Of a stretch of DNA of 64,000 nt, positions 5,801-27,383 are shown piece by piece (positions within the stretch are counted from its first letter, which is position 1; every line of letters begins with the position of its first letter). The DNA comes from a phage, in sequence record PZ168832.1. One strand, given 5' to 3'. Made by a program: the position numbers and the translations under genes. The notes below the pieces were generated by a model that had not been told where the DNA came from, did not search any database, and saw only the letters and a program-made list of their open reading frames with translations.

Positions 5801-5801
5801 C

Positions 5802-6065: not shown

Positions 6066-6083
6066 ATTTAGGTATAGATACTT

Positions 6084-6475: not shown

Positions 6476-6525
6476 TAGTTCACCAGTTATATTGCTTTAA
6501 ATTGAGTTTTACTATATTAATATAC

Positions 6526-6552
6526 AACGCCAGATTTCTGGCGTTTATTTAC
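6526..6552 (+). terminator. rho-independent terminator
   Basis: ACGCCAG-ATTT-CTGGCGT hairpin followed by TTATTTA. Confidence 0.6.
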
Positions 6553-6611
6553 CGCACCCTGAAAGGATATATCCATGCAACAATATAACAAAGCCGTATC
6601 AGGAGGATTAA

Positions 6612-8929: not shown

Positions 8930-8968
8930 TTATCATCAAAATATTTGCTTTTCTGACGAGGTGATATT

Positions 8969-9193
8969 ATGATTAACTTAGACAGGATTGAGTTAGCACT
9001 TAGTACCTTAATCAAATATTACCAGTTTGCTTTTAAGGCTAGTTTGTTCGGCTTGTTCAATCCTCATCAAGCAGCAAAGGCGCGAAGCAATGCCAACCGC
9101 CTGCGCTGTACTGGTATAGTTATCCACGACCGGATATTGACAGAGGGTAGATTCAGCCATGAATACACAAGGGAGAATAACAAATCAACGTAG
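8969..9193 (+). CDS. hypothetical protein
   Basis: 74-aa ORF with GAGGTG SD. Confidence 0.4.
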   Translation: MINLDRIELALSTLIKYYQFAFKASLFGLFNPHQAAKARSNANRLRCTGIVIHDRILTEGRFSHEYTRENNKST

Positions 9194-9368
9194 GGCTTTA
9201 CAAGTCCTCATCCACTACCTGTCACGCCTTTATCCAACGGCGCACGAGCAGAATCCATCAACGGGTCACCTGTTTAAGCGCCGTAACCTTTCGTTAAAAA
9301 CATTTGCTTTAATCCAATATGACCGCTACCTGGACGGGCGCTACTGCGGCCCGAAGGATTCTCTATGA
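9159..9368 (+). CDS. hypothetical protein
   Basis: 69-aa ORF. Has an unusual 35-nt overlap with the preceding ORF. Confidence 0.4.
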   Translation: MNTQGRITNQRRALQVLIHYLSRLYPTAHEQNPSTGHLFKRRNLSLKTFALIQYDRYLDGRYCGPKDSL

Positions 9369-9643
9369 TTACTACATACAAAGTATTCTTTGTCAAGTGC
9401 ACATCATCTATTGATGACCAATTTACTGCTGGCAAGAATTATCCCGTGATTTCTGAGTCAAGGCTAGATATAATCTTGAACGATCATGAAATCTATGAGC
9501 CGATGCCAGCGACTGCGTTTGATGTTATCGGTCATGTTCGGATTAAGACGAATGTTGAAACGATGCATGACCCGTTGTTCAAGAAGCAAATCAAGAATGC
9601 CATGCAAGACTTTTGCGCGGCCATGTTTAAATATTATAAGTGA
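9365..9643 (+). CDS. hypothetical protein
   Basis: 92-aa ORF with GAAGGA SD and ATGA overlap. Confidence 0.55.
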   Translation: MITTYKVFFVKCTSSIDDQFTAGKNYPVISESRLDIILNDHEIYEPMPATAFDVIGHVRIKTNVETMHDPLFKKQIKNAMQDFCAAMFKYYK

Positions 9644-9650
9644 GTTGAAG

Positions 9651-9872
9651 ATGAGCAAGAAAACCCTTAAGGCTGGCGACCGTATCCGTTGGGTGTCAGG
9701 ACAGCATATGCGCGCAGGCACCATCCTTGAGCTGGATGAATACCTTACCGATTCGCGCGGTCGCAATCATTACCGTGTAAGAATCGATACAGTAAAAGAA
9801 GATGACAAGTCACTGGTTGGTGAAGTCGTCATCGTAACTCCACGTCAAATCAAGGCGGCTTGTGAAGCATGA
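9651..9872 (+). CDS. hypothetical protein
   Basis: Internal ATG of ORF 9486-9872 (MSKKTLKAGDRIRW...). Chosen to avoid overlap with 9365-9643. Confidence 0.5.
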   Translation: MSKKTLKAGDRIRWVSGQHMRAGTILELDEYLTDSRGRNHYRVRIDTVKEDDKSLVGEVVIVTPRQIKAACEA

Positions 9873-10024
9873 ATAAATATCAATTTAGCGATAATAAAAT
9901 CAGTAAGGCAGATGCAATCAAGCAGCTTCGCCGCGTACTTGAAGCCAGCGGCCATACGAAAGAGCGCGCACGCGTCCTGGCCAAAGAGCATTATAAACGT
10001 TTTGTGTCACAAATCAGAGGTTGA
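9869..10024 (+). CDS. hypothetical small protein (51 aa)
   Basis: Below the ORF-track cutoff. ATGA overlap. MNKYQFSDNKISKADAIKQLRRVLEASGH... Confidence 0.45.
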   Translation: MNKYQFSDNKISKADAIKQLRRVLEASGHTKERARVLAKEHYKRFVSQIRG

Positions 10025-10026
10025 CC

Positions 10027-10374
10027 ATGGCTCATGTTAAAGACGAAGTGTTGTATGGCGCAGAAATTAAGAAGCGCGTGCGTGAGATGGCTTCCGGTGG
10101 CACGCTGCTGCCGCCGCGCGTTCGATGCGACCATGTGATTGGCGTATCCGGCACGAAAGAGATGGGTGTGTTGGTAAAAGACATTCGCGTTGGCGATGTC
10201 ATGGTCATAGACCGACAAGCACGCGTCGTTATCCAGGTGCAACCGAACGATGATGAAGGCTGTGTTCTATTGAAGCTGAAGAAGCTTTCATCCAGCCCAG
10301 CGAAGGCCGTCATCAAGAAGGTGTGGCCCGAAGGATTACGCAAACTCATTCGTCGACCCGTGGAGAATGTATAA
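10027..10374 (+). CDS. hypothetical protein
   Basis: AGAGG SD before ATG 10027; the ORF track starts at TTG 10021. Confidence 0.55.
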   Translation: MAHVKDEVLYGAEIKKRVREMASGGTLLPPRVRCDHVIGVSGTKEMGVLVKDIRVGDVMVIDRQARVVIQVQPNDDEGCVLLKLKKLSSSPAKAVIKKVWPEGLRKLIRRPVENV

Positions 10375-13955: not shown

Positions 13956-14284
13956 AATTGAAATGGTATGTGGACCCTGAGCCGACAGGCCAATACAGGT
14001 CATTCCAACGTCGCGGCTGGCCGACTTGTTACAGCGGCAATCCCGATAAAGAAGACTGCGAGCTGCTTGCCGCTATCGTAAGCCTCGACCATCACGGCTA
14101 TGAAGGCCACTACGCGAGAGCAACCAACCTTCGGCTCAAGGTGCGCATCCATTTCAAGGTCGCAGGCGAGGACCGCACCGGACTCTCCAAGGAAGAGTTC
14201 AGCAGCATCGCCGACGCAAAGGCGTGGCTCAAGGCTTTCTATAAGAACAACCCTAAATTCTATCCAACTAAGGATGCATCATGA
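13952..14284 (+). CDS. hypothetical protein
   Basis: 110 aa with GGAGAAGG SD. Confidence 0.55.
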   Translation: MKLKWYVDPEPTGQYRSFQRRGWPTCYSGNPDKEDCELLAAIVSLDHHGYEGHYARATNLRLKVRIHFKVAGEDRTGLSKEEFSSIADAKAWLKAFYKNNPKFYPTKDAS

Positions 14285-14772
14285 CTAATAAAACTCAGCG
14301 CATCAAGTTCGAAGGCAAAGAATACAAAATAGACGTTCGTGCAAGATTCATTGCGCGCGATTCCAATGGCGGCATTTGGTTGTATGAGTCAAAACCTGTA
14401 TGGGAAGAGCGGCGCGGCCAGTGGTTGTACGAGACTTGTGGTTCGGTTTGGTGCGAGCGCATCGACCAAGTGAAGACGTTGAAAAAGAACCGACCAGCAT
14501 CACGAGATTCTCTGCAAGAAGTCGAATCAATCAAAATCCAAGACCCAGCAACGTCGACCGATAAACAATACGCAGTCGGGCAACGTGACATCGAGCAACT
14601 CGACGAGGGTGGCTATTATACGCGCCACATCTATGCCATGACTCATGAAGGACTTTACAGCAAGTCAGACATCGCCGCTGAACTGGCTCACCGTGACTTG
14701 CAAATTGACCTTCTCAAGATAGAAGTGCAAAACTTACGCAACACCCTGTTAAATACTTGGAGCTTAAAATGA
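14281..14772 (+). CDS. hypothetical protein (paralogue family with 11024-11341)
   Basis: 163 aa with AAGGA SD. Shares the motif noted at 11024. Confidence 0.55.
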   Translation: MTNKTQRIKFEGKEYKIDVRARFIARDSNGGIWLYESKPVWEERRGQWLYETCGSVWCERIDQVKTLKKNRPASRDSLQEVESIKIQDPATSTDKQYAVGQRDIEQLDEGGYYTRHIYAMTHEGLYSKSDIAAELAHRDLQIDLLKIEVQNLRNTLLNTWSLK

Positions 14773-15194
14773 TACAACGTTACGACCTGACATATGATGT
14801 GGTATCAGAAGATTGCGCCATCACTCCCGTTCCAGAGAGTCATGAAGGACGTTTTGTTGAATATGAGGACTATGCTGCGCTGGAAGCGAAATATAGTGAA
14901 GCGCAACGCGAGTTGGTTGCATTACGCTCACAGGTCCGTGATGCGTCGGCGCTTGTTAAGCAGTTGCACGACGTCGTTGCTACTATAGGCGTGGATGATG
15001 ATGCACCGAAGGAGGAAGCGTGGACCGTGTGGCTTGGTGGAGATAATCCGGTGCCTGGGAAGATGGTTGAGTTTGAATTACTCAACGGTTATAAATCAAA
15101 AGCTGCCGTTCCTTCGGACAGTTTGACATGGGATAAAGTCACAAGCCCGACTGGTGCAAAGATTATTGCCTATCGGGTCGTTAAGGAGGGGTGA
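14769..15194 (+). CDS. hypothetical protein
   Basis: Internal ATG (MIQRYDLTYD...) with GGAG SD and ATGA overlap. Confidence 0.55.
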   Translation: MIQRYDLTYDVVSEDCAITPVPESHEGRFVEYEDYAALEAKYSEAQRELVALRSQVRDASALVKQLHDVVATIGVDDDAPKEEAWTVWLGGDNPVPGKMVEFELLNGYKSKAAVPSDSLTWDKVTSPTGAKIIAYRVVKEG

Positions 15195-15643
15195 TGGGTA
15201 AAAAGCTTATCGCCGCTGGTTGGGCCATCCCGAAGTGGGCTCATCGTGCGCACTACTTTGATGAAGGAGAAGTGCAAAGCCTTTGTGGTCGCGCAACTTA
15301 TTTCGGTGATGAGCGCGTCAGCGGCGATTACATCGACTCGCTTTTAGGCAAAGGTGATTGCAAGAAATGTCAGGATATATTAAGAGATATTCTTACGCAA
15401 AGAGGATTGCTTGAGCTTGATGAATCGGAGGAAGTAATTGAACTTAAGCTTGAAGCGAATTACCTTATTTATACGTTCAAGAACTATTACGCAACTAATA
15501 TGCGCTCAAAAATGAGCGAGGAAGTAATAGAAAAGGTGTTCACCTACAATCCGCTAAGGATGAATAAAACTAAATTGAAGAAGTTTAATATAATGTTAAG
15601 GAAAGAATTTAAAAGGCTTGGAGTGAAGAATTTTATATTTTAA
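15194..15643 (+). CDS. hypothetical protein
   Basis: AAGGAGGGG SD. Last gene of the rightward early block. Confidence 0.55.
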   Translation: MGKKLIAAGWAIPKWAHRAHYFDEGEVQSLCGRATYFGDERVSGDYIDSLLGKGDCKKCQDILRDILTQRGLLELDESEEVIELKLEANYLIYTFKNYYATNMRSKMSEEVIEKVFTYNPLRMNKTKLKKFNIMLRKEFKRLGVKNFIF

Positions 15644-15661
15644 TAGTGATTAATGTTAAGA

Positions 15662-15681
15662 GGGCCGATTGGCCCTTTTTG
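15662..15681 (+). terminator. rho-independent terminator ending the early block
   Basis: GGGCC-GATT-GGCCC followed by TTTTT. Confidence 0.75.
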
Positions 15682-15797
15682 TTTGCCTGTGGAATGTGAG
15701 GCTTTTGTGGTTATTTACGATTCAAGGCTGTAATTTAAGAGAGCGAAAATATTATAATAATTTATCAAGATTATTGCATATTGTGGCAATCAACGTT

Positions 15798-16500
15798 TAT
15801 ACGTATTTATGACAGTTTAATCCACTAAATAATACGGATAGAACAGTGAGGAAAATACAGCGGTGTATTTTAGTGTAAATATTGAATCAAAAATAAATAA
15901 TTATGGTGCTATTATATACGCAGATTGTTTGTAATTTATAGGATATTTTATCGTGGAGTATTGGCTAACGGTGCGTTAGCCGTGGGTCTTGGTGCTTGTG
16001 GTGTTGATGCTCAGAATTTTAATAATGTTTTAGTTTTAGTAATCGTAGTCAATGATGATACGTATAAGAAAATGAGAGTCACCCCTTCACAGGATATTGT
16101 ACCGTGGCCCTGTGGTGCGCCGCGCCTGGGATTGCTGGTATACACTGGTGCTATTTTGCCGCGAAGGCAGTCATTCATACGTATCATGACGTATCATTGG
16201 GCTATTGATTTATAAGGAAAAATACGCTGATACGGATGATACGGGTGCAAACATAATATATATAGAATTCCAGAAAATTAATTAACTCCATTTTGAATTA
16301 ATTTAAATTAATTTTTTTCTACATCCTCATACTTATACTAAACTTATATTTATACGTATCATCCGTAAGATATAAGTAAAAACAAAGACTTGCGGCAATA
16401 CGGATGATACGTCATGATACGCTTCAACCAGCCATCTGCGGCTAAGTCATTGATTTGCATAACAAGCGGCGAAAGGGATGGATTTCTTTTATACGTATCA
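15798..16500. repeat. iteron cluster A: CGTATCATCCGTA / ACGGATGATACG units in both orientations around an AT-rich core (about 16250-16350)
   Basis: Units read at 15798, 15832, 16052, 16178-16197, 16229-16243, 16352-16367, 16398-16422 and 16491. The core contains GAATTC...AAATTAATT...TTTTTTT. Confidence 0.8.
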
Positions 16501-16586
16501 AACAGTACACCACGCACCACGGTCCGCAATCCACGCAGCATTATGATTTGTGTACATTTATAGCCATAATGAACATCAATCTGCAC

Positions 16587-16615
16587 TTGAATATAATGTC
16601 CATCCATTGTATAAT
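16587..16615 (+). promoter_or_regulatory. sigma70-like promoter upstream of terS
   Basis: TTGAAT (16587-16592), 17 nt spacer, TATAAT (16610-16615). Confidence 0.6.
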
Positions 16616-16650
16616 TCACACTATTAATTTGCACTATGGGATTTTGCACT

Positions 16651-17124
16651 ATGAGTCAAGACTATGTAGCGATGCCTGAAGACTTTGAAGACCCGCGATT
16701 TGCAGAGCACAATCAGGCTTTATTCGATGAGTTCATTGACCTTGTTATTCAGGGCCATGACATGCGCGCAGCTTTTGCACTAGTATTTGGAATGGAAGTT
16801 GCAACGGATAACTACACTGGACAGCGAATCCTTTGCGCGCAACGCAACCCATACTACAAAATGCGCTTCAAAAAGCGTATGGAAGAGATGCCACTCAAGG
16901 ATTTGTGGAGCGTAAAAGGTGCAATTCACAATTTGGTTAAGCTTGTGCGTGATCCAGAAGTCGCGGCGTCAGCCAAGCTTAATGCTATTCGCGAACTGAA
17001 TATCATCTACGGCATCACGATGATTGATGAAAACGGCAATAGTAAAATGGGCCGTTCCATGGACGATTTCTACAAGGATTTTGGAGAGGCAGCCAAAGAA
17101 GGCGAGCAATTCTCCCGCCACTAG
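16651..17124 (+). CDS. terS: terminase small subunit-like protein
   Basis: 157 aa. The segment PEVAASAKLNAIRELNIIYGI resembles the conserved helix of small terminases. N-terminal helical region. The ORF-track ATG 16636 lies inside the motif doublet and ATG 16651 is preferred. Assignment is by resemblance only. Confidence 0.5.
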   Translation: MSQDYVAMPEDFEDPRFAEHNQALFDEFIDLVIQGHDMRAAFALVFGMEVATDNYTGQRILCAQRNPYYKMRFKKRMEEMPLKDLWSVKGAIHNLVKLVRDPEVAASAKLNAIRELNIIYGITMIDENGNSKMGRSMDDFYKDFGEAAKEGEQFSRH

Positions 17125-17143
17125 CCAATTTGCACTATAAAAC

Positions 17144-17177
17144 GGCCCTAGAACACATCTTCTCCACTTCTAGGGCC
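17144..17177 (-). terminator. 10-bp perfect hairpin; likely terminator of the leftward island operon (and possibly of terS)
   Basis: GGCCCTAGAA-14 nt-TTCTAGGGCC. On the minus strand it is followed by GTTTTATAG. There is no U-run on the plus side. Confidence 0.55.
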
Positions 17178-17238
17178 GTCGGTAATACGACGGGGAAGGT
17201 TGCAACCGTAAACGCGTTAGAAAGTGTATTATTATAAG

Positions 17239-17502
17239 TCATCTTTTAGTCACCTTACGTAACAATTTACGACCTTCAGCCGTCCAATCGAACGACTCCA
17301 CCAGCAGATTCGCACTATAACCTAAGATGATGCGCCCTTTCTCGTTATCGACCCGCCAACAAGTCTCGAATAGCATTCGATTTGCACTATTAACTATCGC
17401 CGCAACGCGCGTAGGGTAAACGCAATTTGCACTATGGTCATAAAGGGATAAGGTGCGACCACTTCCGATGGACAACGTAGCGATGAGAATGAGCGTATTC
17501 AT
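17239..17502 (-). CDS. hypothetical protein with a signal-peptide-like N-terminus
   Basis: 87 aa with GGTGG SD. MNTLILIATLSIGSG.... Contains three in-frame copies of the reverse-complemented 12-mer (HSAN, NSAN, YSAN). Confidence 0.45.
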   Translation of the reverse strand: MNTLILIATLSIGSGRTLSLYDHSANCVYPTRVAAIVNSANRMLFETCWRVDNEKGRIILGYSANLLVESFDWTAEGRKLLRKVTKR

Positions 17503-17552
17503 AAGCCACCAATTTGCACTATGAAAAGCGACCCCGAAGGGCCGCCATTCGA

Positions 17553-18179
17553 TTAGATAATCTGGAAGGTGTAGGACTTGTTGCCGAACTCGAAGTTCAA
17601 GCGCCCAGCTTCCTTAAGCTTCATGCGGAAGCGAATATGTTTGCTATCCGGTAAGCCCAGCGCGGCGAACGCTACGCGGACCGATTTGAACTCTCCTACA
17701 CCCTCGACCATAACGCCGTTACGGGTAAGACGCTTTTGCGCCACTTCCTTATTATCCCAACTTTTTGCAATGCCTTCGCTATTCGAACGGCGATGGGAAG
17801 GAGTTCCGTTTTGCACTACGCAATTTGCACTATCGTTTAAACCGCTCTTAACGAAGGCTTCATACTCTTCGTCGGTCATCGCGTCGAGTTCTTCCTGCGT
17901 CGGCTCGGCCTTTTTAACGACCGCACGCGCCTTATGCGTTTTTACATCGCTGGACACTTCCTCGCGCGGCTTCGCGTCGGGGATGGGCGATTCGTTGGAC
18001 GGCTCATCGAGCGCGTTTAAGGACTCGATTAACGCGATTACGCGAGTCTCGGCGGTCCGGCGGTCCGAAAACTTCTTAATCGGTTTTGAGCCGGAATTTG
18101 CATTATAGAATGCAACGAGGTCGGCGGTCTTAGTTGCGATAACGTCGCCGCTAGTCGAGAAGCGATTTAAGCTAACCAT
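17553..18179 (-). CDS. hypothetical protein (possible DNA-binding protein of the island)
   Basis: 208 aa with AGGAG SD. Has a protein-like composition, an acidic/Pro-rich linker and a basic C-terminal domain (KRLTRNGV...SVRVAFAALGLPDSKHIRFRMKLK). Confidence 0.6.
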   Translation of the reverse strand: MVSLNRFSTSGDVIATKTADLVAFYNANSGSKPIKKFSDRRTAETRVIALIESLNALDEPSNESPIPDAKPREEVSSDVKTHKARAVVKKAEPTQEELDAMTDEEYEAFVKSGLNDSANCVVQNGTPSHRRSNSEGIAKSWDNKEVAQKRLTRNGVMVEGVGEFKSVRVAFAALGLPDSKHIRFRMKLKEAGRLNFEFGNKSYTFQII

Positions 18180-18259
18180 AATAAACTCCTATTTGTTAGG
18201 GCGCTAGGCGCGAAAGAATTTTATTAAAGCGCCGCGCACGACGCTCTAAAAATCCTCTC

Positions 18260-18544
18260 TTACGCTTCGACGAGGGAGAAGGTTTCAAATTCTTCTTCTC
18301 CCATAACGAGTAAAATATTCCCGATTTCGACCGCTTCGAAGAAGTATCCGTTAACGTTTACTTCGAATGATTCGCGGTCCGATTCCGGTAACGCCGCGTA
18401 AAGTTTAAAAGCCTCGGCGACCGTTACCCCACCCGCTTCAATAGTTTGATCTACGTTCGCGGCGTAGACTTCGGATAAATTTTGTTTTACGCCGTAGTTC
18501 TCGACGATAGCGTTACGGATAGAAGAAACGTTAAGAATAGCCAT
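18260..18544 (-). CDS. acidic small protein, island paralogue A1
   Basis: 94 aa with AGGAG SD. Paralogous to 19176-19466 (EVYAANVDQTIE / SVYLSNVDATIE; VNVNGYFFEAVEIG / VTINGFVYTITEIG). Confidence 0.6.
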   Translation of the reverse strand: MAILNVSSIRNAIVENYGVKQNLSEVYAANVDQTIEAGGVTVAEAFKLYAALPESDRESFEVNVNGYFFEAVEIGNILLVMGEEEFETFSLVEA

Positions 18545-18559
18545 TTTAAACTCCTAGTT

Positions 18560-18596
18560 GGGATAGGCGTTAACGACCTATTCGTTAACTCATCCC
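18560..18596 (-). other. conserved structured 5' leader (copy for A1)
   Basis: On the transcript: outer stem GGGAT/ATCCC and inner stem GTTAACGA/TCGTTAAC with loop ATAGG, just upstream of ACTAGGAG. Confidence 0.5.
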
Positions 18597-18612
18597 GTCC
18601 CGATATGAGTAC

Positions 18613-18640
18613 ATTATAATATAGTGTAGAAAAAAGTAAA
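18613..18640 (-). promoter_or_regulatory. island promoter P-L1
   Basis: TTTACT, 16 nt spacer containing TTTCTACACT, then TATAAT (minus strand). Confidence 0.6.
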
Positions 18641-18684
18641 GCACTTTTTCGATAAAAATGCGATAAATTATTTTATCTTTTTTC

Positions 18685-18712
18685 TTTACTTCTTCGTACA
18701 CTCGCGTATACT
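18685..18712 (+). promoter_or_regulatory. island promoter P-L2
   Basis: TTTACT, 16 nt spacer containing TTCGTACACT, then TATACT. Followed by GTTTATATCGAGACGGG, which is shared with the other copies. Confidence 0.6.
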
Positions 18713-18767
18713 TGTTTATATCGAGACGGGCGATGGCCTTTCTTCTACTAGCATCGGGAGCTTTATT

Positions 18768-19070
18768 ATGACTACTTTGATCTCTTCCATCCTTACTTAC
18801 GACGAAGACCGCTTAACCGTTCGCTCTCTTATCGCCGCCGTTAACGCGGAACTAGAATCTAGCGCCATTAAGGTCCGCGCGGTCGCCTTCATCGGCCTTT
18901 CCTTCGACGATATGAAGTACGCCGAACGTAGCGCCATCCGCTTCACGAAGACCGACGACGAAGCCGTTACCCTTATCGAGACGGTTACGCCGCGCGACGA
19001 AGCGTTAATTATCATCGAGTATATCGATATAGAAGGTGATAAAGCTTATAAATATTTTATCGCAAAATAA
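18768..19070 (+). CDS. acidic small protein, island gene B (possible distant paralogue of A1/A2)
   Basis: 100 aa with GGGAG SD. N-terminus MTTLISSI resembles MITLSAI and MAILNVSSI. Confidence 0.6.
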   Translation: MTTLISSILTYDEDRLTVRSLIAAVNAELESSAIKVRAVAFIGLSFDDMKYAERSAIRFTKTDDEAVTLIETVTPRDEALIIIEYIDIEGDKAYKYFIAK

Positions 19071-19081
19071 CGAAAAATTGC

Positions 19082-19110
19082 TTTACTTATTCGTACACTA
19101 AGACTATAAT
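19082..19110 (+). promoter_or_regulatory. island promoter P-L3
   Basis: TTTACT, 17 nt spacer containing TTCGTACACT, then TATAAT. Confidence 0.6.
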
Positions 19111-19121
19111 GTTTATATCGA

Positions 19122-19154
19122 GAGGGATGAGGAAGCGAATAGGTCGCTACCCTC
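19122..19154 (+). other. conserved structured 5' leader (copy for A2)
   Basis: Outer stem GAGGG/CCCTC and inner stem (A)GCGA/TCGC(T) with the same loop ATAGG, upstream of ACTAGGAG. Confidence 0.5.
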
Positions 19155-19175
19155 CCGACTAACTAGGAGAATATT

Positions 19176-19466
19176 ATGATTACTTTATCCGCTATCCGCG
19201 CCGCTCGCGTCGAAACTTCCGAAAACTCTAATGTATTTGGCGAAACCTTAGAGAGCGTTTATCTCTCTAACGTAGACGCGACTATCGAGTCTATTTATGA
19301 ACCGATCAACTTCCTCGACCTTTACAAGTATCGCGACGAGGACGTAGCATCCTACCGCGTAACGATTAACGGCTTCGTCTATACGATTACCGAAATCGGC
19401 GGCGAATATCTCGCGATCCCGCAACTCGGCGGAGAAGTGACTTATTTTAAAATCGTAAGCCTTTAA
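19176..19466 (+). CDS. acidic small protein, island paralogue A2
   Basis: 96 aa with AGGAG SD. Paralogue of 18260-18544. Confidence 0.6.
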   Translation: MITLSAIRAARVETSENSNVFGETLESVYLSNVDATIESIYEPINFLDLYKYRDEDVASYRVTINGFVYTITEIGGEYLAIPQLGGEVTYFKIVSL

Positions 19467-19477
19467 GGAGAAGAAAA

Positions 19478-19687
19478 ATGACTAATATGAATAACTCTCT
19501 TAACGCGCGCGCCCATCGTACCGCCGTCATCGATATGTTCCGCGAACTTAAGGAATTATGCGATAATATGAACGCGATGTTATCCATCGGCGGCTGGGGA
19601 TACGAAGAAGAGGTTAAATACGCGGTTATGCGTCGTAAGCGCGATAACGTCCTGGGACAAATTAAACGCGCCGGATTATTCCTTTAA
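19478..19687 (+). CDS. hypothetical small protein, island gene C
   Basis: 69 aa with AAGGAG SD. Confidence 0.55.
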   Translation: MTNMNNSLNARAHRTAVIDMFRELKELCDNMNAMLSIGGWGYEEEVKYAVMRRKRDNVLGQIKRAGLFL

Positions 19688-19713
19688 TTATAATTACCCA
19701 CCGTTACTAATAG

Positions 19714-19738
19714 GCCGCGCTTAGTCGCGGCTTTTCTT
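19714..19738 (+). terminator. rho-independent terminator of the rightward island operon
   Basis: GCCGCG-CTTAGT-CGCGGC followed by TTTTCTT. Confidence 0.7.
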
Positions 19739-19857
19739 CGTCCCTATTTCGATGCGCTTCTCCGCGAAAACTCCTTTATCCTTCCCTTCGTCGTCGCATA
19801 ATCTTCTTCGAGATGCTCCTTAGTTCGCATAACAGGTATTACGTTAAATGGAGAACA

Positions 19858-19931
19858 TCGCGTAAGTCCTTGTTTTATATAGACACCTATATCGGACCGT
19901 TAGGGCGGGTCGCGTAAGTCGTTGTTTTATA
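19858..19931 (+). repeat. two 22-bp direct repeats TCGCGTAAGTC(C/G)TTGTTTTATA
   Basis: Copies at 19858-19879 and 19910-19931, 52 bp apart, in non-coding DNA. Confidence 0.8.
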
Positions 19932-20056
19932 AAGGCGCAAAACTTTCCCTTCGTTCCGAACTAAAACGAGGAATATGCCGACCCTTCGTCCGAAAATAGT
20001 ACGCATGCGAAATTACATGCATCTAGAATAATCCCCACCGATATTATCCTACACGC

Positions 20057-20119
20057 AATCATTCGCTTTCGAATCATTATGCTTCATATTGTTATGCGTC
20101 AAATCATTCGCTTTCGAAT
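20057..20119 (+). repeat. two 18-bp direct repeats AATCATTCGCTTTCGAAT
   Basis: Copies at 20057-20074 and 20102-20119. Each contains the dyad ATTCG-CTTT-CGAAT. Confidence 0.8.
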
Positions 20120-20332
20120 TGTAACGCTGGAAACTGTAACGGCTATTGATTATTGCGTTCGTGTGGTTTTTATGGCATGGGTCTTTTGGTGCGTTTTGGT
20201 ACTTGATGGAATTTGCGGTACACTAATCAAAATACGACACATTTGGTCCACTAACTTTTCAAAGAAAAAGTCCCAGACAGTACCGTACTATTTTGTACCC
20301 ACAGTAAATTTGCAGTACACTCCTGCGCGGCA

Positions 20333-20361
20333 GGCAAAATAAAGGGCCGCCACAGCGACCC
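20333..20361 (-). terminator. rho-independent terminator ending the leftward accessory block
   Basis: Minus strand GGGTCGC-TGTG-GCGGCCC (one G-U pair) followed by TTTATTTTG. Confidence 0.6.
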
Positions 20362-20391
20362 ACGATTCACGGTTAAATCAACAAGCACCCA

Positions 20392-20772
20392 CTATTCACT
20401 CTTATGGGCATCACCAAAGCCATCCGCAATCTGGCTGATCAGCGATTCAATGGACACAGTTTTACCAATTGATCGAGCGGTAATAGCAAGCATATTATCA
20501 ATCAAACCATGATTGGATGCATATGATCCAGGTTTTGAATCATCTTCAGAACAACCAAAAAGCTGGTCGCGCAGACTTTCAAGAGAACGCTCAATATTTT
20601 CCAACTTCTCTTCTAAATCGGATTGGCGACGTAAAACCCACGTCAAGTCACGGTTGCCAACTTCCAATCCATCAGAATAGCAAGGTGGAGCGTCAATTTT
20701 GATGCTGGAACCAAAAGCAATGCCGCTGCCTTTAGTATATGTGTGACTCATAGAATCATTTTTATTTGACAT
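20392..20772 (-). CDS. hypothetical protein
   Basis: Internal ATG (MSNKNDSMSH...) with GAAGG SD. ORF-track start is 20838. Confidence 0.55.
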   Translation of the reverse strand: MSNKNDSMSHTYTKGSGIAFGSSIKIDAPPCYSDGLEVGNRDLTWVLRRQSDLEEKLENIERSLESLRDQLFGCSEDDSKPGSYASNHGLIDNMLAITARSIGKTVSIESLISQIADGFGDAHKSE

Positions 20773-20847
20773 ATCGTTACCTTCAATATTTGGGTGATTA
20801 ACAATAAGTATAATAAAGCCGCATAGCGCGGCATTCAAATCGATTTA

Positions 20848-21096
20848 TTAATTGTGACGATTGGATTCATCAATCGATACCAATTGTGCAGGGTCGCCGG
20901 ATACAGTTGCGCCGATGATGCCCATCTGAGAGAAAAATTCTGAATAAACTTCCTTCCAGTACTTACGCGCTGCTTTCTGGGCTTGTCCTTTGCGCTTGAA
21001 GCTTTTGCCTTGAAAGATGAAACGGTCTTTTGGCGCGGAATACTCCACCACACCTTCCAGCCATTGTAAGAATGCTACTGATTCATTTTGATTCAT
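20848..21096 (-). CDS. hypothetical protein
   Basis: 82 aa with TGAGGA SD. Confidence 0.5.
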   Translation of the reverse strand: MNQNESVAFLQWLEGVVEYSAPKDRFIFQGKSFKRKGQAQKAARKYWKEVYSEFFSQMGIIGATVSGDPAQLVSIDESNRHN

Positions 21097-21103
21097 ATAA
21101 TCC

Positions 21104-21505
21104 TCAATATTTTAATAAGAAAGCGCCCAACCAACTTTCCTCAATCTCGCGGCCAGTAGCCACACGGTCGGTCTTTGCTATGGGTCTGGATTCGCCGCAG
21201 GGTAATCCGTCTTGTAGCTGTGTACTATTGCCAATTCTCACCAAAACCTTTCCATCAGGGTCGATATAAGCGCGACAACCCATGATTTCGAGTCGCTGTA
21301 GACACTGGCGAATCGTTTTCAGCTTCTCACCGGACCGGATAGAGCGTGGTCGCGACCGCGACCGCTGACCGTTCTTATTCACTGTACGCTTGAAAACCGG
21401 AATATCATTGGTGCGTTGTGGCTTGGGTCGGTAGTAGGCTTCTTCACCAGGAGTTGCGCCTGGTGTCAGTTCGCGCTTAAGCGCCTTTTCGATATCGATG
21501 ATCAT
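21104..21505 (-). CDS. hypothetical basic protein
   Basis: 133 aa with an Arg/Ser-rich centre (GQRSRSRPRSIRSG). Confidence 0.55.
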   Translation of the reverse strand: MIIDIEKALKRELTPGATPGEEAYYRPKPQRTNDIPVFKRTVNKNGQRSRSRPRSIRSGEKLKTIRQCLQRLEIMGCRAYIDPDGKVLVRIGNSTQLQDGLPCGESRPIAKTDRVATGREIEESWLGAFLLKY

Positions 21506-21508
21506 AAT

Positions 21509-21607
21509 TCATGCCGCAGCAGCATGGATGATTGCGTAAACAATTCCAAACAGGGCGACAACACAAACAGTGCCCCAAAATGCAAAGCGTCGTGACTCTT
21601 TATCCAT
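21509..21607 (-). CDS. hypothetical single-pass membrane peptide (32 aa)
   Basis: Below the ORF cutoff. MDKESRRFAFWGTVCVVALFGIVYAIIHAAAA. Its start overlaps the upstream stop (ATGGATAA). Confidence 0.35.
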   Translation of the reverse strand: MDKESRRFAFWGTVCVVALFGIVYAIIHAAAA

Positions 21608-21809
21608 TGTCCACCGCCCCAATATCAGTTAAGAACTCGTGCAACGCGCCTTTCTTATTGAGTCTTTGCATAGTTTTGATATCATCAAGCGATATACTCT
21701 GATCACTTTGCTGTTTATCTATGCAGACAAGGCCGCCTTTCTTAGCCTTGATTGTCATGCCTTTGGCTTCAATACTTTTTACGAAATCGGACAATAATTT
21801 AATTTCCAT
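21600..21809 (-). CDS. hypothetical protein
   Basis: ATG 21809 follows a GTGAGGTG SD. The ORF track starts at GTG 21821. Confidence 0.5.
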   Translation of the reverse strand: MEIKLLSDFVKSIEAKGMTIKAKKGGLVCIDKQQSDQSISLDDIKTMQRLNKKGALHEFLTDIGAVDNG

Positions 21810-21852
21810 AATACACCTCACTTGTTAACGTATAATGAGTATAACTTAATAG

Positions 21853-21883
21853 CCCATAAAGTAAAGGCGCTTTTCAGCGCCTT
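21853..21883 (-). terminator. hairpin terminator after the tail-fibre gene
   Basis: AAGGCGC-TGAAAA-GCGCCTT followed by TACTTTAT on the minus strand. Confidence 0.5.
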
Positions 21884-21890
21884 GAGTGAA

Positions 21891-24248
21891 TTATTTCGCT
21901 GCTTTCAGCGCGGCTATCTCTGCCTTGAGTTCATCTATCTGATCCATCAATGCAAGAATAGCCTCGTGGTGCAGTGCTGCTGCTACACCTGGTGTGTTGA
22001 CAGATTTTATGTTATCCAACGTCGAACCGTCGCGCAGAGTAACAGGCGATGACTGTGTTTCAGATACTGCTTCAGGAAAGTCTTTCTCTACATCCTGGGC
22101 GATGAAGCCAAAACCGACGGAGCCATTAGTTTCCAGAGTCCATGCCACGCCTCTGATGTTGCGCATCTTGACAAGTGGATCAGTGATCCGCTCAATGTTA
22201 CTTTTAATACGTTCATCAGATATACTCCGCCACTCCTGACACCTTGCTATTCCATCGGAGCCAAAAAGATAAGAGGCCGCGCCGCCTGTCCCGCTGTAAA
22301 CGTTCAATTGCGCGCGGTCCAGCGTGGTCGTGCTACTCCTTATGCCTCCGAGAATCCAGCTTCCACTGTACCAGTCACCGCTGATTGAGTTTACAAAATT
22401 TCCTTCTGGAACGTTGGCATAGTTTTGAATCCTTATGGCGTTGTTTTCTGCAGCAGCAACGCCTACTGAATTAACTGGGGATGCAACAAGGTCTTTAGAC
22501 CGGATATATGCATCAACAACTATTGTCCCATCAGGGCGCAGAGTTCCAATCTGGGATGTGGAATTCGGCAACACCAATTTGCCATCTTGGTTAAATGCCC
22601 ACTCTTGCACCCCATTAGATATCACAGCACCTTGTTCAGACGTCAATCCATCAATTTTGCCGTATGCCTGCAAGAATGCTTGATACGCGATGTTCGTGCC
22701 AATCTTATATTCAGATTTTACACTACCGCCTCTGACAAGCATTCCGGCTGCAGGTTTTACTGCGTCGCCGTTAATCACACTCCAAGAAGTATTCGCGGCA
22801 ACAAATCCACCCGATGCACGAATCACCCAAACGCCAACAAAGTTGCGACCCATGATTTCGTCAGTTGCCGCTCCATAAATCGGGCTTGATCTGGATGCAT
22901 CAATATTTATTGTATTGAGACGCCCCTCTACTGCCCCGCTTCCAACAGGTATGGTGTCGCCAGCGCCTTGGGGGTACAAATCGTTGTTTGTGTAAAAAGC
23001 ACCTCGGACGGCTGTGCCAAAGATTTGCGCATAAGTGCCTGCCGATACACCAGCGGCTGAGCCTGTGATGTTTGGTGCAGCAGATTCAAATATTTGACCG
23101 TTCGCAGTGGAGTTGCCGCCATCACCGCGCCCGTAAAGCGCCCGTACAGAGCCTGTCTGAACACCGTTAAGGTCTGGGACACGGAATGTCGTTGTGCCGT
23201 TACCTGAAGAATATTTTGCACGTTTGAACTTATCCGCAAGCCAGTCGGCATCTGCGATGGGCGAAAGCATTTGCGCATACGCCCAAAGTTCAGGCCAGTC
23301 AGCACGGTTTAGCAATTGCCCGTCTGCAACGACTTCGTATGGCTGAATATATGATCTACTATTGCGAAGATGGAAATCGCCAACACCATAGTTCATGACG
23401 CCGTTCATACTTGGACCAACGGTGCCTGTGTTTACTAAGTTTTCAACCCAACGCTTAGTCGCGGCATCATAATCATTTACAGGGTCGCCAGCGAGCGGCG
23501 TTGATCCTTGTGGACGGATGTTTAGCCACGCCTGAGCATTATCTGCAGAGCCTGTGCCGCCCATTGAAGTTGGAACGATGCTCTGATCAGCAACAGGGCC
23601 GAATCCAAAAGCAGACTTCATCCCTTGGATGGTAGTTTGCCCTGTGCCGCCGTTGGCGACTGGGATGACAGATTTACTGTTGTATAATTGCGCCCATTGA
23701 CTCCAAACCCCATTTACCGCGTTGTAAGTCCTTTGGTATGTAACATTGTTGTAATATGTTGAGTATCTTTGGACGCAACTTTCTATTGATGGTCCAGTTT
23801 TTAGGACTTCAAGGACTCCTGCTTGTGAAACTGGGTAATTAAGAACAGTCTGAGCATCTGCATTGAAGTCTTGGAAATAATTTCCAAACCAAGAGCCTGT
23901 CAGAAAGTTGAGATTTATCCCAGAAGGAAGTTTGCCATAATTTCTTACAACCCCTGTTAAGGTCGCAGCAGTGTTACGAATAGAAAGCATGTCACCAGCA
24001 GACCATGCACGCGCTGCCGTACCTTCTTGTGCGCGCTGCACGGTCAGGACGTCTCCAACCACGGCTGTCACTGTGACAATTTCGAATTGGCGGCCTGTTG
24101 CAGCGTCGACGATTGTCGCCACTACACGCTCGTTCGCGCCCAAGGTCGGAAATCCCGACCCTGAGCGAATTGTGATTGTGGTGTCTGAAGTCGTCGTTGG
24201 TTGAGCCAGCGCGACCTCAAAGTTGTTTTTGAATATTAGCCTTGGCAT
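21891..24248 (-). CDS. tail fibre/tailspike with a C-terminal intramolecular chaperone (peptidase S74-like) domain
   Basis: 785 aa. The C-terminus SDERIKSNIERITDPLVKMRNIRGVAWTLETNGSVGFGFIAQDVEKDFPEAV, followed by a coiled-coil tail, matches the S74 auto-cleaving chaperone pattern seen in endosialidase and T5 L-shaped-fibre proteins. Confidence 0.85.
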   Translation of the reverse strand: MPRLIFKNNFEVALAQPTTTSDTTITIRSGSGFPTLGANERVVATIVDAATGRQFEIVTVTAVVGDVLTVQRAQEGTAARAWSAGDMLSIRNTAATLTGVVRNYGKLPSGINLNFLTGSWFGNYFQDFNADAQTVLNYPVSQAGVLEVLKTGPSIESCVQRYSTYYNNVTYQRTYNAVNGVWSQWAQLYNSKSVIPVANGGTGQTTIQGMKSAFGFGPVADQSIVPTSMGGTGSADNAQAWLNIRPQGSTPLAGDPVNDYDAATKRWVENLVNTGTVGPSMNGVMNYGVGDFHLRNSRSYIQPYEVVADGQLLNRADWPELWAYAQMLSPIADADWLADKFKRAKYSSGNGTTTFRVPDLNGVQTGSVRALYGRGDGGNSTANGQIFESAAPNITGSAAGVSAGTYAQIFGTAVRGAFYTNNDLYPQGAGDTIPVGSGAVEGRLNTINIDASRSSPIYGAATDEIMGRNFVGVWVIRASGGFVAANTSWSVINGDAVKPAAGMLVRGGSVKSEYKIGTNIAYQAFLQAYGKIDGLTSEQGAVISNGVQEWAFNQDGKLVLPNSTSQIGTLRPDGTIVVDAYIRSKDLVASPVNSVGVAAAENNAIRIQNYANVPEGNFVNSISGDWYSGSWILGGIRSSTTTLDRAQLNVYSGTGGAASYLFGSDGIARCQEWRSISDERIKSNIERITDPLVKMRNIRGVAWTLETNGSVGFGFIAQDVEKDFPEAVSETQSSPVTLRDGSTLDNIKSVNTPGVAAALHHEAILALMDQIDELKAEIAALKAAK

Positions 24249-25922: not shown

Positions 25923-27383
25923 ATGAATAAAATATTAACACATAATTGGAAAGTCATGTACCAGTTGAATCCTGCTTTAAGAGAAGTCTGGAAGACGAAA
26001 GCGCGATACAAAGTAATATACGGCGGTCGTGCATCTTCCAAATCGCATGATGCCGCTGGTTTTGCTATTTATTTGGCGGCAAACTTTAAATTAAAATTCC
26101 TTTGCGTTCGACAATTCCAGAACAAGATTTCTGAATCAGTATATACGCTATTAAAAGACAAAATAGAAATTTCTGATTTCAAAGATGAGTTCAACTTGTT
26201 AAAGAACTCCATTGAACACAAAAGAACAAAATCTGAATTCTTATTTTACGGTATCGCACGCAACGTTGACGAAATCAAATCAACAGAAGGCGTTGATGTT
26301 CTTTGGCTTGAAGAAGCGCACGCACTTACTGAAGAGCAGTGGGACATCATTGAGCCGACAATTCGTAAGGAAGGGTCCGAAATATGGATCATATTTAACC
26401 CTGATGAAGAGGCTGATTTCGTCTACCAGAACTTTGTTATGCGACCGCCTAAAAATGCCATCGTTAAGAAGATTAACTGGCAGGACAATCCATTCTTGTC
26501 GCAAACAATGCTGGACGTTATCGCTGGCATGTATGAGCGCGACCCGAAAAAGGCAGAACACGTTTATGGCGGAGTACCGAAGACAGGCGGCGACAAGTCG
26601 GTCATCAACCGTGCATTCGTCAAGGCCGCACTAAACCTCCACAAACACCCTACGTTGGGATGGAGCTTGTCAGGGTCTAACCGTATAGGCTTTGACGTGG
26701 CAGACGACGGCGACGACTTAAACGCCACAGCATTTGTCACGGGCAACGTATTGCGCGGCATAAAGACATGGGAAGGTCTGGAAGATGAATTGCTTAAGTC
26801 CGCAAGCGGAGTTTGGAAAGATGCATTAACATTCGGCGCATCAATTACCTATGACGCCATCGGTGTTGGTGCATTTGCTGGTTCAAAATTTGATGAGCTT
26901 AATGAGTATGCAATCCATGAAAATCCAACATTCCCAAGAATCGAATTTAATGCGTTCAACGCGCAAGGTGCTGTTGATGATCCTGATGACGTCTTCCTTG
27001 AGTTACCACACGTTGAAATACTCAATAAAGACCATTTCGCAAACATAAAAGCGCAAAAATGGACTGAGATTGCCGAACGATTCAGGAAGACATATGAGTA
27101 TGCAACAGGGCAGGCCGTATACCCGACTGATGAGCTGATTTCCATCGACACAGACGGCATTCCAGAACTTGGGATTCCTGCTTGGTCTGCGGAAGAAATT
27201 GAGACATTTCTTTTTGAGATGTCAGCGCCGCGCAAAGACACGTCTGTGCTTGGTAAGTTTAAAGTTGAATCGAAAAAGGATATGGCAAAGCGTGGAGTCA
27301 AATCGCCTAACAAAGCGGACGCAGCAATCATGGCGTTGATGAAACCAATTGTTGCAGCATCCGGCTTCTTCTCTAACCTTTAA
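25923..27383 (+). CDS. terL: terminase large subunit
   Basis: Walker A-like YGGRASSKSHD and Walker B VLWLEEA, with a C-terminal nuclease-type region. Met12 (25956, GGAAAG SD) is the better-supported start because ATG 25923 has no SD and abuts the -10 element. Confidence 0.85.
   Translation: MNKILTHNWKVMYQLNPALREVWKTKARYKVIYGGRASSKSHDAAGFAIYLAANFKLKFLCVRQFQNKISESVYTLLKDKIEISDFKDEFNLLKNSIEHKRTKSEFLFYGIARNVDEIKSTEGVDVLWLEEAHALTEEQWDIIEPTIRKEGSEIWIIFNPDEEADFVYQNFVMRPPKNAIVKKINWQDNPFLSQTMLDVIAGMYERDPKKAEHVYGGVPKTGGDKSVINRAFVKAALNLHKHPTLGWSLSGSNRIGFDVADDGDDLNATAFVTGNVLRGIKTWEGLEDELLKSASGVWKDALTFGASITYDAIGVGAFAGSKFDELNEYAIHENPTFPRIEFNAFNAQGAVDDPDDVFLELPHVEILNKDHFANIKAQKWTEIAERFRKTYEYATGQAVYPTDELISIDTDGIPELGIPAWSAEEIETFLFEMSAPRKDTSVLGKFKVESKKDMAKRGVKSPNKADAAIMALMKPIVAASGFFSNL

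Follow-up and report, generated by a model that had tools for sequence, protein, structure and literature searches.

A CA/TG-poor gene module in the terminal repeat of a Wifcevirus and its likeness to the pre-early region of T5

The DNA analysed here (hereafter the window) is a stretch of 64,000 nucleotides from phage sequence record PZ168832.1, with positions counted from its first letter; its source is a Wifcevirus, a myophage of E. coli. Our subject is an island of small genes that an earlier note, made from the letters alone, had placed at 17140-19740 and described as self-contained and compositionally distinct. The island is contained entirely within the phage's direct terminal repeat (DTR), of which it makes up the right-hand two-thirds, and ends approximately 190 bp from the right terminus. 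The limits of the repeat follow from two relatives: the two ends of SP13 (OP352608, 72,384 bp), whose record holds both repeat copies, map to 16290-16301 and 20186 of the window, and the DTR called by PhageTerm in Mansfield (1-3673) corresponds to 16290-20186. In a megablast search with 17100-19800, 29 phage records matched at 92-97% identity, all of them Wifcevirus phages of E. coli or Shigella (including WFC, WFH, ECML-117, FEC19, Mansfield and the BASEL phages Bas98-101), and the module was found in every one of them. The six open reading frames (ORFs) listed in the earlier note are all present, with lengths of 87, 208, 94, 100, 96 and 69 amino acids (aa). The repeat, the zone of unusual composition, the genes (with isoelectric point, pI, where acidic) and their predicted promoters are as follows.

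16290..20186, no strand: DTR, about 3.9 kb, present as a single copy in the window
17250..20000, no strand: zone of CA:TG-step avoidance, core 17900-19990, from dinucleotide counts
17239..17502, minus strand: basic 87-aa ORF, composition mildly shifted
17553..18179, minus strand: conserved two-domain protein of 208 aa, phrog_4730 (unknown function)
18260..18544, minus strand: acidic 94-aa protein in a hypervariable slot, pI 4.05, net charge -12
18613..18640, minus strand: predicted sigma-70-type promoter TTTACT-N16-TATAAT, 10/12 consensus, for a leftward unit of the 94-aa and then the 208-aa gene
18685..18712, plus strand: predicted sigma-70-type promoter TTTACT-N16-TATACT, ahead of the 100-aa gene
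18768..19070, plus strand: acidic 100-aa protein, pI 4.58, net charge -6
19082..19110, plus strand: predicted sigma-70-type promoter TTTACT-N17-TATAAT, ahead of the 96-aa gene (and the 69-aa gene)
19176..19466, plus strand: acidic, fast-evolving 96-aa protein, pI 4.23, net charge -8
19478..19687, plus strand: basic 69-aa protein, phrog_10377 'transcriptional regulator' (E=1e-37)

The island had been judged CpG-rich by eye, and counting in 1-kb windows bears this out: the observed/expected ratio (o/e) of CpG is 2.0-2.2 over approximately 17750-20000, against a window mean of 1.14 (standard deviation 0.22), and this is the sole stretch of the 64 kb that lies more than two standard deviations above the mean. 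GC content, however, is unchanged (0.46 in the island versus 0.464 elsewhere), and the underlying anomaly is a depletion of the CA:TG step that is compensated by CG (o/e 2.1) and TA. The o/e of CA and TG is 0.27-0.4 in the island versus 1.17 elsewhere (z about -12). Within the core there are 86 CA+TG steps where 259 are expected and 234 CG steps where 110 are expected, TA has an o/e of 1.22 versus 0.67 elsewhere, and CTG and CAG together occur merely five times in 2.1 kb. The left edge of the zone is a gradient that runs from about 17250 to about 17900, through the 208-aa gene, and the left third of the DTR is normal; the right edge is sharp, at about 20000, which is 260 bp past the end that the earlier note had given the island. 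Non-coding DNA up to this edge is also CA/TG-depleted, and the depletion is symmetric between the strands and independent of gene orientation.

The same rule is followed within genes. In 11 island genes pooled from three genera (Wifcevirus and the genera Kylevirus and Myosmarvirus considered below; 1195 codons), CA and TG are depleted in each of the three codon phases. At codon junctions CA makes up 2.4% and TG 2.3%, versus 8.9% and 15.3% in a control gene, while junctions of NNC with a following G rise to 24% and those of NNT with a following A to 12%. The codons ACA and CCA are absent, CTG, TTG, GTG, TCA and GCA are rare, and the acidic proteins are nearly devoid of His, Gln, Cys and Trp, the codons of which contain CA or TG. 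We also shuffled synonymous codons within each gene (2000 permutations), a procedure that preserves both the protein and its codon usage. Junction CA/TG numbered 17 in the 94-, 100-, 96- and 69-aa genes of the window (61.2 +/- 5.7 after permutation), 13 in Pantoea phage Kyle (40.8 +/- 4.2) and 7 in phage SMP (56.2 +/- 5.4), and for none of these three sets was any of the 2000 permutations as low as the observed value. For the 208-aa gene of the window, 20 were observed versus 35.1 +/- 4.2, with a fraction of 0.0005 as low. Control genes deviated in the opposite direction.

It follows that the composition is under strong selection at the level of DNA. Because the depletion is strand-symmetric and equally present at codon junctions and in non-coding DNA, explanations at the level of codons, tRNA or mRNA are excluded; this disposes both of translation optimisation or avoidance of tRNAs cut by anticodon nucleases and of RNA-level causes such as avoidance of MazF ACA sites. 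A general avoidance of restriction palindromes was also considered and rejected, TCGA, CGCG, GCGC and TTAA being enriched 1.6-3.3-fold in the core. An unselected mutational bias, arising from special replication or repair of the terminal repeat, deserves mention in that the signature is confined to part of that repeat and the terminal repeat of DTR phages is copied by a special mechanism. Nevertheless, such a bias would need to combine two context-specific transitions (CA/TG to CG and CA/TG to TA) with an unchanged GC content, to bend amino-acid usage, and to leave unaffected both the left third of the DTR and those CA/TG steps that have a function (ATG codons, the TTTGCACTAT motif and the TACACT of a promoter spacer). 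We consider this explanation highly improbable. Full-text literature searches gave no description of dinucleotide-step avoidance limited to one region of a phage or of a match between such avoidance and an unexplained restriction phenotype, nor any of the functions of the island genes. The selection regime thus appears to be undescribed, and it is strong enough to exclude four amino acids and, by the look of the promoters, to rewrite a -35 hexamer.

The promoters of the island follow the CA/TG rule as well. The three TTTACT promoters that had been proposed as a type private to the region are borne out, in that each scores 9-10 of 12 consensus positions and there is no other good match in the window; judged by consensus matches only, those at 18613-18712 are divergent. 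The extended motif has five matches in the window at three or fewer mismatches (0.9 expected), and the two beyond the trio are poor. The repeated unit is longer than the earlier note stated and comprises an A/T-rich upstream tract, the promoter and the start of the leader. The family to which these promoters belong can be written as an A/T-rich upstream tract, (G)CTTTACTT, N16-17, TATAAT and GT. It is conserved in all three genera, with four copies in Kyle (one before each island gene) and one or two in SMP/MyoSmar, and within the stretches examined it is confined to the island. TTTACT differs from the sigma-70 consensus TTGACA at precisely two letters, the G of its TG and the A of its CA, and the 'private' promoter is accordingly read here as a host consensus rewritten under the CA/TG rule. 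The earlier note had also taken the conserved spacer TTCGTACACT for the binding element of a regulator. We reject such an operator, since the Kyle and SMP members of the family do not share this spacer; the likeness of the three copies in the window is explained by duplication of promoter, leader and gene together.

Comparison with relatives separates the effects of position from those of ancestry. The 208-aa gene belongs to the core gene set of the entire Pbunavirus-like group, being found in 356 phage records (phages of Pseudomonas, Serratia, Pantoea, Xanthomonas, Burkholderia and Xylella among them) and forming 829 clusters at 50% identity in a public protein library. In Kyle (Kylevirus), which has an exact DTR at 1-3603, the CA/TG signature lies at 1756-3506 and covers a 189-aa homologue of the 208-aa protein plus two acidic genes. 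Serratia phage MyoSmar (Myosmarvirus) has a PhageTerm DTR at 1-3559 (PMC6753285). Its signature zone is at approximately 200-1950, and a promoter at about 247-275 reads inward; the homologous region of SMP is more extreme still (o/e 2.5 for CG, 0.13 for CA and 0.10 for TG). In all three genera the CA/TG-poor zone begins 100-200 bp from a physical end of the genome, and the layout is shared: a conserved protein of the 208-aa type and fast-evolving acidic proteins of about 95 aa, served by the same promoter family. The acidic genes of the three genera have no sequence homology with one another. A comparable situation is seen within Wifcevirus. In phage WFC, terS (the small terminase gene), the 208-aa gene and the 87-aa ORF are conserved (96-99% identity; 97% for the 87-aa ORF), but at 1970-2284 its 94-aa slot is occupied by an unrelated 104-aa acidic protein (29% identity), and its 96-aa gene is merely 61% identical to that of the window. 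Both of these WFC genes have 2-3 CA+TG per 100 nt, versus 15 in the flanks. Since unrelated alleles and non-homologous genes in the same slot carry the CA/TG signature, selection must depend on position. From these alignments the 94-aa slot is a cassette-like hypervariable position of the kind typical of host-phage arms-race genes, and the acidic-gene slots in general are hypervariable positions under a constraint set by location and not by ancestry.

These comparisons also bear on the origin that had been proposed for the island, namely horizontal acquisition as an accessory segment that kept the compositional signature of a foreign donor genome. In its favor, the segment departs strikingly from the usual composition and the acidic genes are without sequence homologues outside the genus. 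However, the segment is not patchily distributed among relatives, which was the synteny check suggested at the time; it is carried by 29 of 29 Wifcevirus records and sits inside the DTR. GC content is unchanged, and the signature grades into the core 208-aa gene, the composition of which is normal in Pbunavirus. It recurs on the non-homologous genes of Kylevirus and Myosmarvirus and on the replaced allele of WFC, and the avoidance at codon junctions far exceeds what codon usage gives. No tRNA gene was found in 14000-22000, and no mobility gene, such as an integrase or transposase, came up when the island ORFs were searched against protein families or in the part of the ManiWeber (Bas99) annotation that covers the region. 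The distribution of the signature argues that it was selected in place and excludes a relic of a donor genome; foreign acquisition is accordingly a reading to which we attach almost no probability.

Examination of 7.9 kb from the start of Pbunavirus PA19 revealed no island. The 8.8 kb examined of Xylella phage MATE2 (Carpasinavirus) likewise had no island, with one short, weakly similar stretch: 8001-8500, which adjoins the primase-helicase gene, has an o/e of 1.88 for CG and 0.39 for TG and could represent a similar island on a smaller scale. As a separate observation, Kyle has two tandem 76-nt units (71% identity) at 4415-4566, just outside its island and near the DTR boundary.

With regard to the proteins, the three of about 95-100 aa are acidic, as the earlier note had said, and the proposed paralogy of the 94- and 96-aa proteins was recovered by BLASTP (E=2e-7, 34% identity). 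The suggestion that the 100-aa protein is a third, divergent member of this family found no support, there being no BLASTP or hhalign signal between it and the pair. The 100-aa protein is present in 29/29 Wifcevirus records at 82-94% identity, while the 96-aa protein ranges from 61 to 97% among relatives. Searches of Pfam, NCBIfam and PADLOC gave no match for any of the six proteins, PHROGs gave the two listed above, and sequence searches against the PDB were uninformative. An AlphaFold model of the 96-aa protein (predicted local distance difference test, pLDDT, 71) has an alpha/beta fold with a C-terminal beta-meander and looks like no known DNA mimic; the best structural match beyond Wifcevirus is Kyle's acidic protein of 94 aa (Foldseek E=0.011, TM 0.52). 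The model of the 208-aa protein, built from a 62-sequence alignment (pLDDT 85), has disordered linkers and, at its C terminus, an alpha+beta domain that weakly resembles the DNA-binding domain of I-HmuI. The 208-aa protein is therefore likely, on weak structural similarity, to bind DNA, and to that extent the prediction agrees with its proposed role as a regulator; the regulator-binding spacer is the part that finds no support. An insertion/deletion polymorphism affects the 69-aa gene, which SP13 and F13 carry and which Mansfield, Bas98-101 and WFC lack. Most of the other Wifcevirus records are also without it, their alignments lacking approximately 230 bp of the query, which is the length of this gene. 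In ECML-117 and FEC19 the matched region does include an annotated 'transcriptional regulator', although the ECML-117 match extends over just 88% of the query.

There are published phenotypes against which the distribution of restriction sites can be set. Bas98-101 resist EcoKI, EcoCFT_I, EcoRI (38 sites, both strands), EcoRV and EcoCFT_II (92 sites), but are very sensitive to EcoP1_I (89 sites), a difference left unexplained; the sites of EcoP1_I and EcoCFT_II are about equally numerous in these phages (PMC11990801). The resistance of Wifceviruses to restriction-modification (RM) has no known genome-protection mechanism (PMC11990801). In T5-like phages, RM, CRISPR and Ssp are resisted provided that their sites are absent from the first-step-transfer DNA within the DTR (PMC10644984). 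We deduced the EcoCFT_II site to be CACAG, since no other 5-mer reproduces the published site counts for this system, 92 in Bas99 and 81 in T7, and our counts of AGACC, EcoRI and EcoRV sites reproduce the published table exactly. Counts for the window were as follows.

EcoCFT_II (CACAG): 87 in the window, 0 in the DTR, 5.3 expected in the DTR
EcoRI: 19 in the window, 0 in the DTR, about 1.2 expected
EcoRV: 5 in the window, 0 in the DTR, about 0.3 expected
EcoKI: 7 in the window, 0 in the DTR, about 0.4 expected
EcoAI-type: 3 in the window, 0 in the DTR, about 0.2 expected
StyLTI (CAGAG): 98 in the window, 1 in the DTR, 6.0 expected
EcoP15I (CAGCAG): 62 in the window, 1 in the DTR, 3.8 expected
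EcoP1I (AGACC): 78 in the window, 5 in the DTR in both orientations, 4.7 expected

The pattern holds in the DTR-equivalents of the window and seven relatives (Bas98-101, Mansfield, WFC and SP13), which have 0-1 CACAG (about 5 expected), no EcoRI or EcoAI-type site, 0-1 each of EcoRV and EcoKI, and 5-10 AGACC in both orientations. Type III enzymes require two inversely oriented sites. The low counts for the resisted systems and the bidirectional EcoP1I sites in the DTR are as the T5 rule predicts. DTR site counts correlate with RM phenotype (0-1 for the systems that are resisted, 5-10 for EcoP1_I), a relationship that is correlative only, and the distribution offers a concrete explanation for the BASEL puzzle of why five RM systems are resisted and EcoP1_I is effective.

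A scenario in which the phage has to protect itself from itself would place the selective agent within the infection: an early phage nuclease directed at host DNA (the role of A1 in T5), or an uncharacterised DNA modification that wards off host enzymes, would act at short CA/TG-containing motifs, and the early region, needing to remain intact and available for transcription meanwhile, would have lost them. What is depleted is a bare dinucleotide step, broader than any single restriction site, and the depletion is restricted to the early module. The RM resistance in the absence of known genome protection (PMC11990801) could be accommodated, as could the fact that AGACC, the site of the sole restricting enzyme, EcoP1I, contains neither CA nor TG. 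Moreover, how T5 DNA escapes the A1 nuclease of T5 itself is an open question (preprint 10.64898/2026.04.02.716235). Against this, neither the island nor the curated annotation of ManiWeber (Bas99) yielded a recognisable nuclease or modification gene; the remaining genome, being CA/TG-rich (o/e 1.17), would need some other protection; and the EcoRI and EcoRV sites contain no CA or TG and are still not restricted, which a modification targeted to CA/TG would not explain. We regard self-immunity of this sort as unlikely.

We favor, with somewhat better than even confidence, the possibility that the segment is a T5-like pre-early module for host takeover and anti-defence that is borne on CA/TG-poor "stealth" DNA. 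In the order of events that we infer, the module, which occupies about 2.5 kb of the approximately 3.9-kb DTR next to a physical genome end, would be among the first DNA to enter, and host RNA polymerase would transcribe this terminal 2.5 kb as a pre-early module, with three strong sigma-70 promoters of one family driving two divergent units that each end in a hairpin terminator. The acidic proteins of about 95 aa are proposed as inhibitors of nucleases or of defence systems of the host and, together with a 208-aa protein that probably binds DNA, would neutralise host nucleases or otherwise shield the incoming genome. The terminal DNA would itself be exposed before any of these products exists and, as in T5, may therefore have been selected to be a poor nuclease target. 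Loss of CA:TG would erase the CA-containing type III sites of enterobacteria (CACAG, CAGAG and CAGCAG), and synonymous and codon-junction choices, amino-acid content and the -35 hexamer (TTGACA to TTTACT) would all have been bent to the rule. What remains of the accessory module suggested by the earlier note is a self-contained, separately promoted set of genes for which an anti-defence role appears the most plausible one, without the horizontal acquisition. The more general proposition, that Wifcevirus, Kylevirus and Myosmarvirus all carry stealth DNA at the end first exposed and so evade short-motif nucleases until their own proteins shield the genome, is one that we put forward tentatively, as somewhat less probable than its negation. 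If true, it would explain the resistance of the BASEL phages to every system tested except EcoP1_I, and stealth DNA would be a new, generalised form of restriction evasion. CA/TG avoidance may also point to an unrecognised selective agent in Enterobacterales, or to a phage activity on DNA containing CA/TG. The fast-evolving acidic proteins and the very widespread, two-domain, predicted DNA-binding family are nominated as candidate anti-defence factors. Wifceviruses, like their Pbunavirus relatives, attract interest for use in phage therapy, and a design rule free of CA/TG, along with the CA/TG-free and predictedly very strong promoters, could be used in phage engineering.

Several observations weigh against a T5-like stealth module. 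The leading regions of T5 and T7 have no comparable CA/TG depletion. None of the six proteins matches Ocr, ArdA or another known anti-defence family, and none matched a family annotated as A1, A2 or Dmp, the T5 proteins with which such a module might be equated, in family searches that involved no direct comparison. With regard to restriction, the zeros in the DTR for rare sites of 6-13 bp are individually non-significant (about 1 expected for EcoRI, 0.2-0.3 for EcoRV and 0.3-0.4 for EcoKI), such that the weight rests on the type III contrast, and the DTRs of Bas99 and Bas101 each contain one EcoKI site. EcoPI is resisted by Tequintaviruses even though its sites occur in their first-step-transfer DNA, so a site in exposed DNA need not cause sensitivity. 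Finally, removal of CA:TG eliminates 45% of 5-mers, 53% of 6-mers and 60% of 7-mers as possible sites. As only about half of the possible sites are stopped in this way, and as CG/TA palindromes (TCGA, CGCG, TTAA) are 2-3-fold enriched, restriction avoidance is an incomplete rationale for so costly a constraint.

A further alternative is a physical or cis-acting role of the genome terminus that has nothing to do with defence. Candidate roles include ejection mechanics, duplication of the repeat, cutting by terminase, and the avoidance of spurious sigma-70 promoters (TTGACA, TGn) and start codons (ATG, GTG, TTG) in a region that would be very highly expressed, or of CTG sites of the host primase. 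The constant placement of the island 100-200 bp from a physical end in three genera would fit, CA:TG is the most flexible DNA step, and TG or CA is part of each of the three start codons of bacteria and of both upstream elements of sigma-70 promoters; the rewriting of the island's own promoters and the rarity of CTG and CAG (5 in 2.1 kb) can be counted on the same side. On the other hand, T5 and T7, the other DTR phages checked, have no such depletion, the left third of the same DTR is normal, and TA steps, which are equally flexible, are enriched. Such a role does not predict the pattern of RM phenotypes, and we know of no packaging or ejection mechanism that needs a dinucleotide-free tract. 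A terminus function of this kind is a minority possibility in our estimation, and we continue to favor the pre-early module on stealth DNA.

Further features of the DTR and its surroundings are listed here, together with the folding free energy (dG) of the hairpins where it was calculated.

16651..17124, plus strand: small terminase gene terS (phmmer versus PDB 7uxe 'Small terminase', E=7e-34; phrog_4783)
25923..27383: large terminase gene terL (Pfam Terminase_3)
16613..18106, plus strand: AATTTGCACTAT array of about 11 copies, all on one strand and five without mismatch, exclusive to the DTR
17142..17179, no strand: hairpin with a 13-bp stem after terS, dG -21 to -22 kcal/mol, z -5 to -5.7
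17529..17550, minus strand: intrinsic-terminator-like hairpin 3' of the 208-aa gene, dG -18 kcal/mol, z -5, followed by UUUUC
18569..18589, minus strand: leader hairpin GTTAACG-AAUAGGU-CGTTAAC in the 5' untranslated region (UTR) of the 94-aa gene
19131..19151, plus strand: leader hairpin GGAAGCG-AAUAGGU-CGCTACC in the 5' UTR of the 96-aa gene
19712..19733, plus strand: predicted intrinsic terminator at the end of the rightward unit, with a T-rich tail, dG -12.7 kcal/mol
19740..20186, no strand: non-coding, repeat-rich end of the DTR, CA/TG-poor until about 20000, after which the final 190 bp or so are normal to TG-rich

The two hairpins said to bound the island were found again, at 17142-17179 and 19712-19733, and the one at 17529-17550 is additional. 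That at 17142-17179 has its T-run on the minus-strand side, as expected of a terminator of the leftward unit, and it and the hairpin at 17529-17550 are both annotated as terminators in WFC. The leader hairpins have an invariant loop, AAUAGGU. The stem is a perfect 7 bp in GTTAACG/CGTTAAC, in GGTAGCG/CGCTACC (the form that the 96-aa leader takes in other Wifceviruses) and in TCGGGCG/CGCCCGG. The stems covary, and variants that preserve pairing through wobbles occur too. The hairpin is also found in SMP (approximately 4011-4031, minus strand) and has thus been kept between Wifcevirus and Myosmarvirus. We suggest it as a candidate cis-regulatory RNA element; Rfam gave no family match in 16000-20600.

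The statement that the island is wedged between terS and terL is correct only in a loose sense: terS abuts it, whereas terL lies 6.2 kb beyond it, with small minus-strand genes and a tail-fibre gene (21891-24248) in between. terS has an alternative upstream ATG at 16636 and a normal composition (15.3 CA+TG per 100 nt). The AATTTGCACTAT array is confined to the left two-thirds of the DTR, running from the terS start codon into the 208-aa gene, and variants are also present at 20213 and 20310. In minus-strand genes the motif is always translated as Ser-Ala-Asn, and three copies are within the 87-aa ORF. Kyle has eight copies of ATT(T/C)GCACTA on one strand at the equivalent place (800-1475 of its record); a motif of this type was not seen in SMP. 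The array may be bound by TerS or by the 208-aa protein, or the motif may be a promoter specific to the phage. In the non-coding end of the DTR there are direct repeats, namely the 25-mers at 19858-19882 and 19910-19934, TCGCGTAAGTC(C/G)TTGTTTTATA(T/A)AG, and, at 20057-20137, two or three copies of AATCATTCGCTTTCGAAT-type units. These repeats, with the TG-rich last 190 bp, may be signals related to terminase cutting or ejection. On the other side, a stretch of low GC (0.35-0.39) at approximately 15250-16500 straddles the left DTR boundary at 16290; its GC skew is strongly positive, and it contains TA-rich repeats (ATACGTATCA three times, ATACGGATGATACG twice).

There is precedent for several aspects of this module, although in no case is the correspondence complete. 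Phages are known to avoid restriction sites (for example Rusinov et al. 2018, cited in PMC8594841), and CACAG, CAGAG, CAGCAG, CCWGG and TGCA have been removed here. Known avoidance, however, concerns specific sites of 4-8 bp and is genome-wide, whereas here it concerns a bare dinucleotide step over approximately 2.5 kb only, amino-acid composition and promoter hexamers are bent as well, and CG/TA palindromes are enriched. In bacteria we know of no dinucleotide sensor. Selection on dinucleotides that is independent of the protein does have a parallel in the CpG/UpA suppression of eukaryotic viruses, which is linked to sensing by ZAP, but that suppression (PMC2390760, PMC10747524) affects the opposite dinucleotides, at the RNA level, over whole genomes and in another domain of life.

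The island-type acidic proteins share with the DNA mimics Ocr, ArdA and Arn their small size (88-104 aa), strong negative charge (net -6 to -18), fast evolution and, probably, early expression. Those of the window are small and strongly acidic, with a pI of 4.05-4.58 and a net charge of -6 to -12. The predicted fold of the 96-aa protein, on the other hand, resembles no known mimic, and there is no similarity in sequence either; DNA mimicry is neither supported nor excluded. The class I region of T7 (promoters A1-A3) resembles the island in being a leading genome end with strong, inward-reading host promoters, and the first product of T7, Ocr (gp0.3), is a small, very acidic anti-restriction protein. 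The T7 leading end nevertheless has a normal CA/TG content, its DTR is 160 bp and non-coding, and the island proteins are not similar to Ocr in sequence or fold.

The closest comparison is with the first-step-transfer region of T5 and BF23, and a DTR-borne early module is already known from T5 and SPO1. The T5 region consists of two inverse units and a repeat-rich non-coding border (PMC10644984), the latter comparable with the repeat-rich DTR end described above. The differences are nonetheless considerable. Our module is 2.5-3.9 kb versus approximately 10 kb, its phage is a myovirus of the Pbunavirus-like lineage, Pfam, PHROGs and NCBIfam gave no phosphatase or A2-type match for its proteins, and CA/TG is not depleted in T5 (o/e 0.7-1.1). 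Whereas T5-like phages resist EcoPI with sites in their first-step-transfer DNA, Wifceviruses are sensitive to EcoP1_I, and whereas T5 injects its DNA in two steps, with a stop signal for injection, the module here is likened to the T5 region from sequence alone. As an observation on T5 itself, CpG o/e in its first-step-transfer repeat (1-10219) is 1.3-1.6 versus 0.5-0.9 in the adjacent early region, with the switch at the DTR border. What the module has in common with the T5 region is its place within a long DTR (as in Kyle and MyoSmar), its two inverse units of small, mostly unknown proteins with predicted host promoters and bounding terminators, and a site distribution that in silico fits the T5 rule of site absence. 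By this analogy we infer that the module works like the T5 region while not being a member of it by descent.

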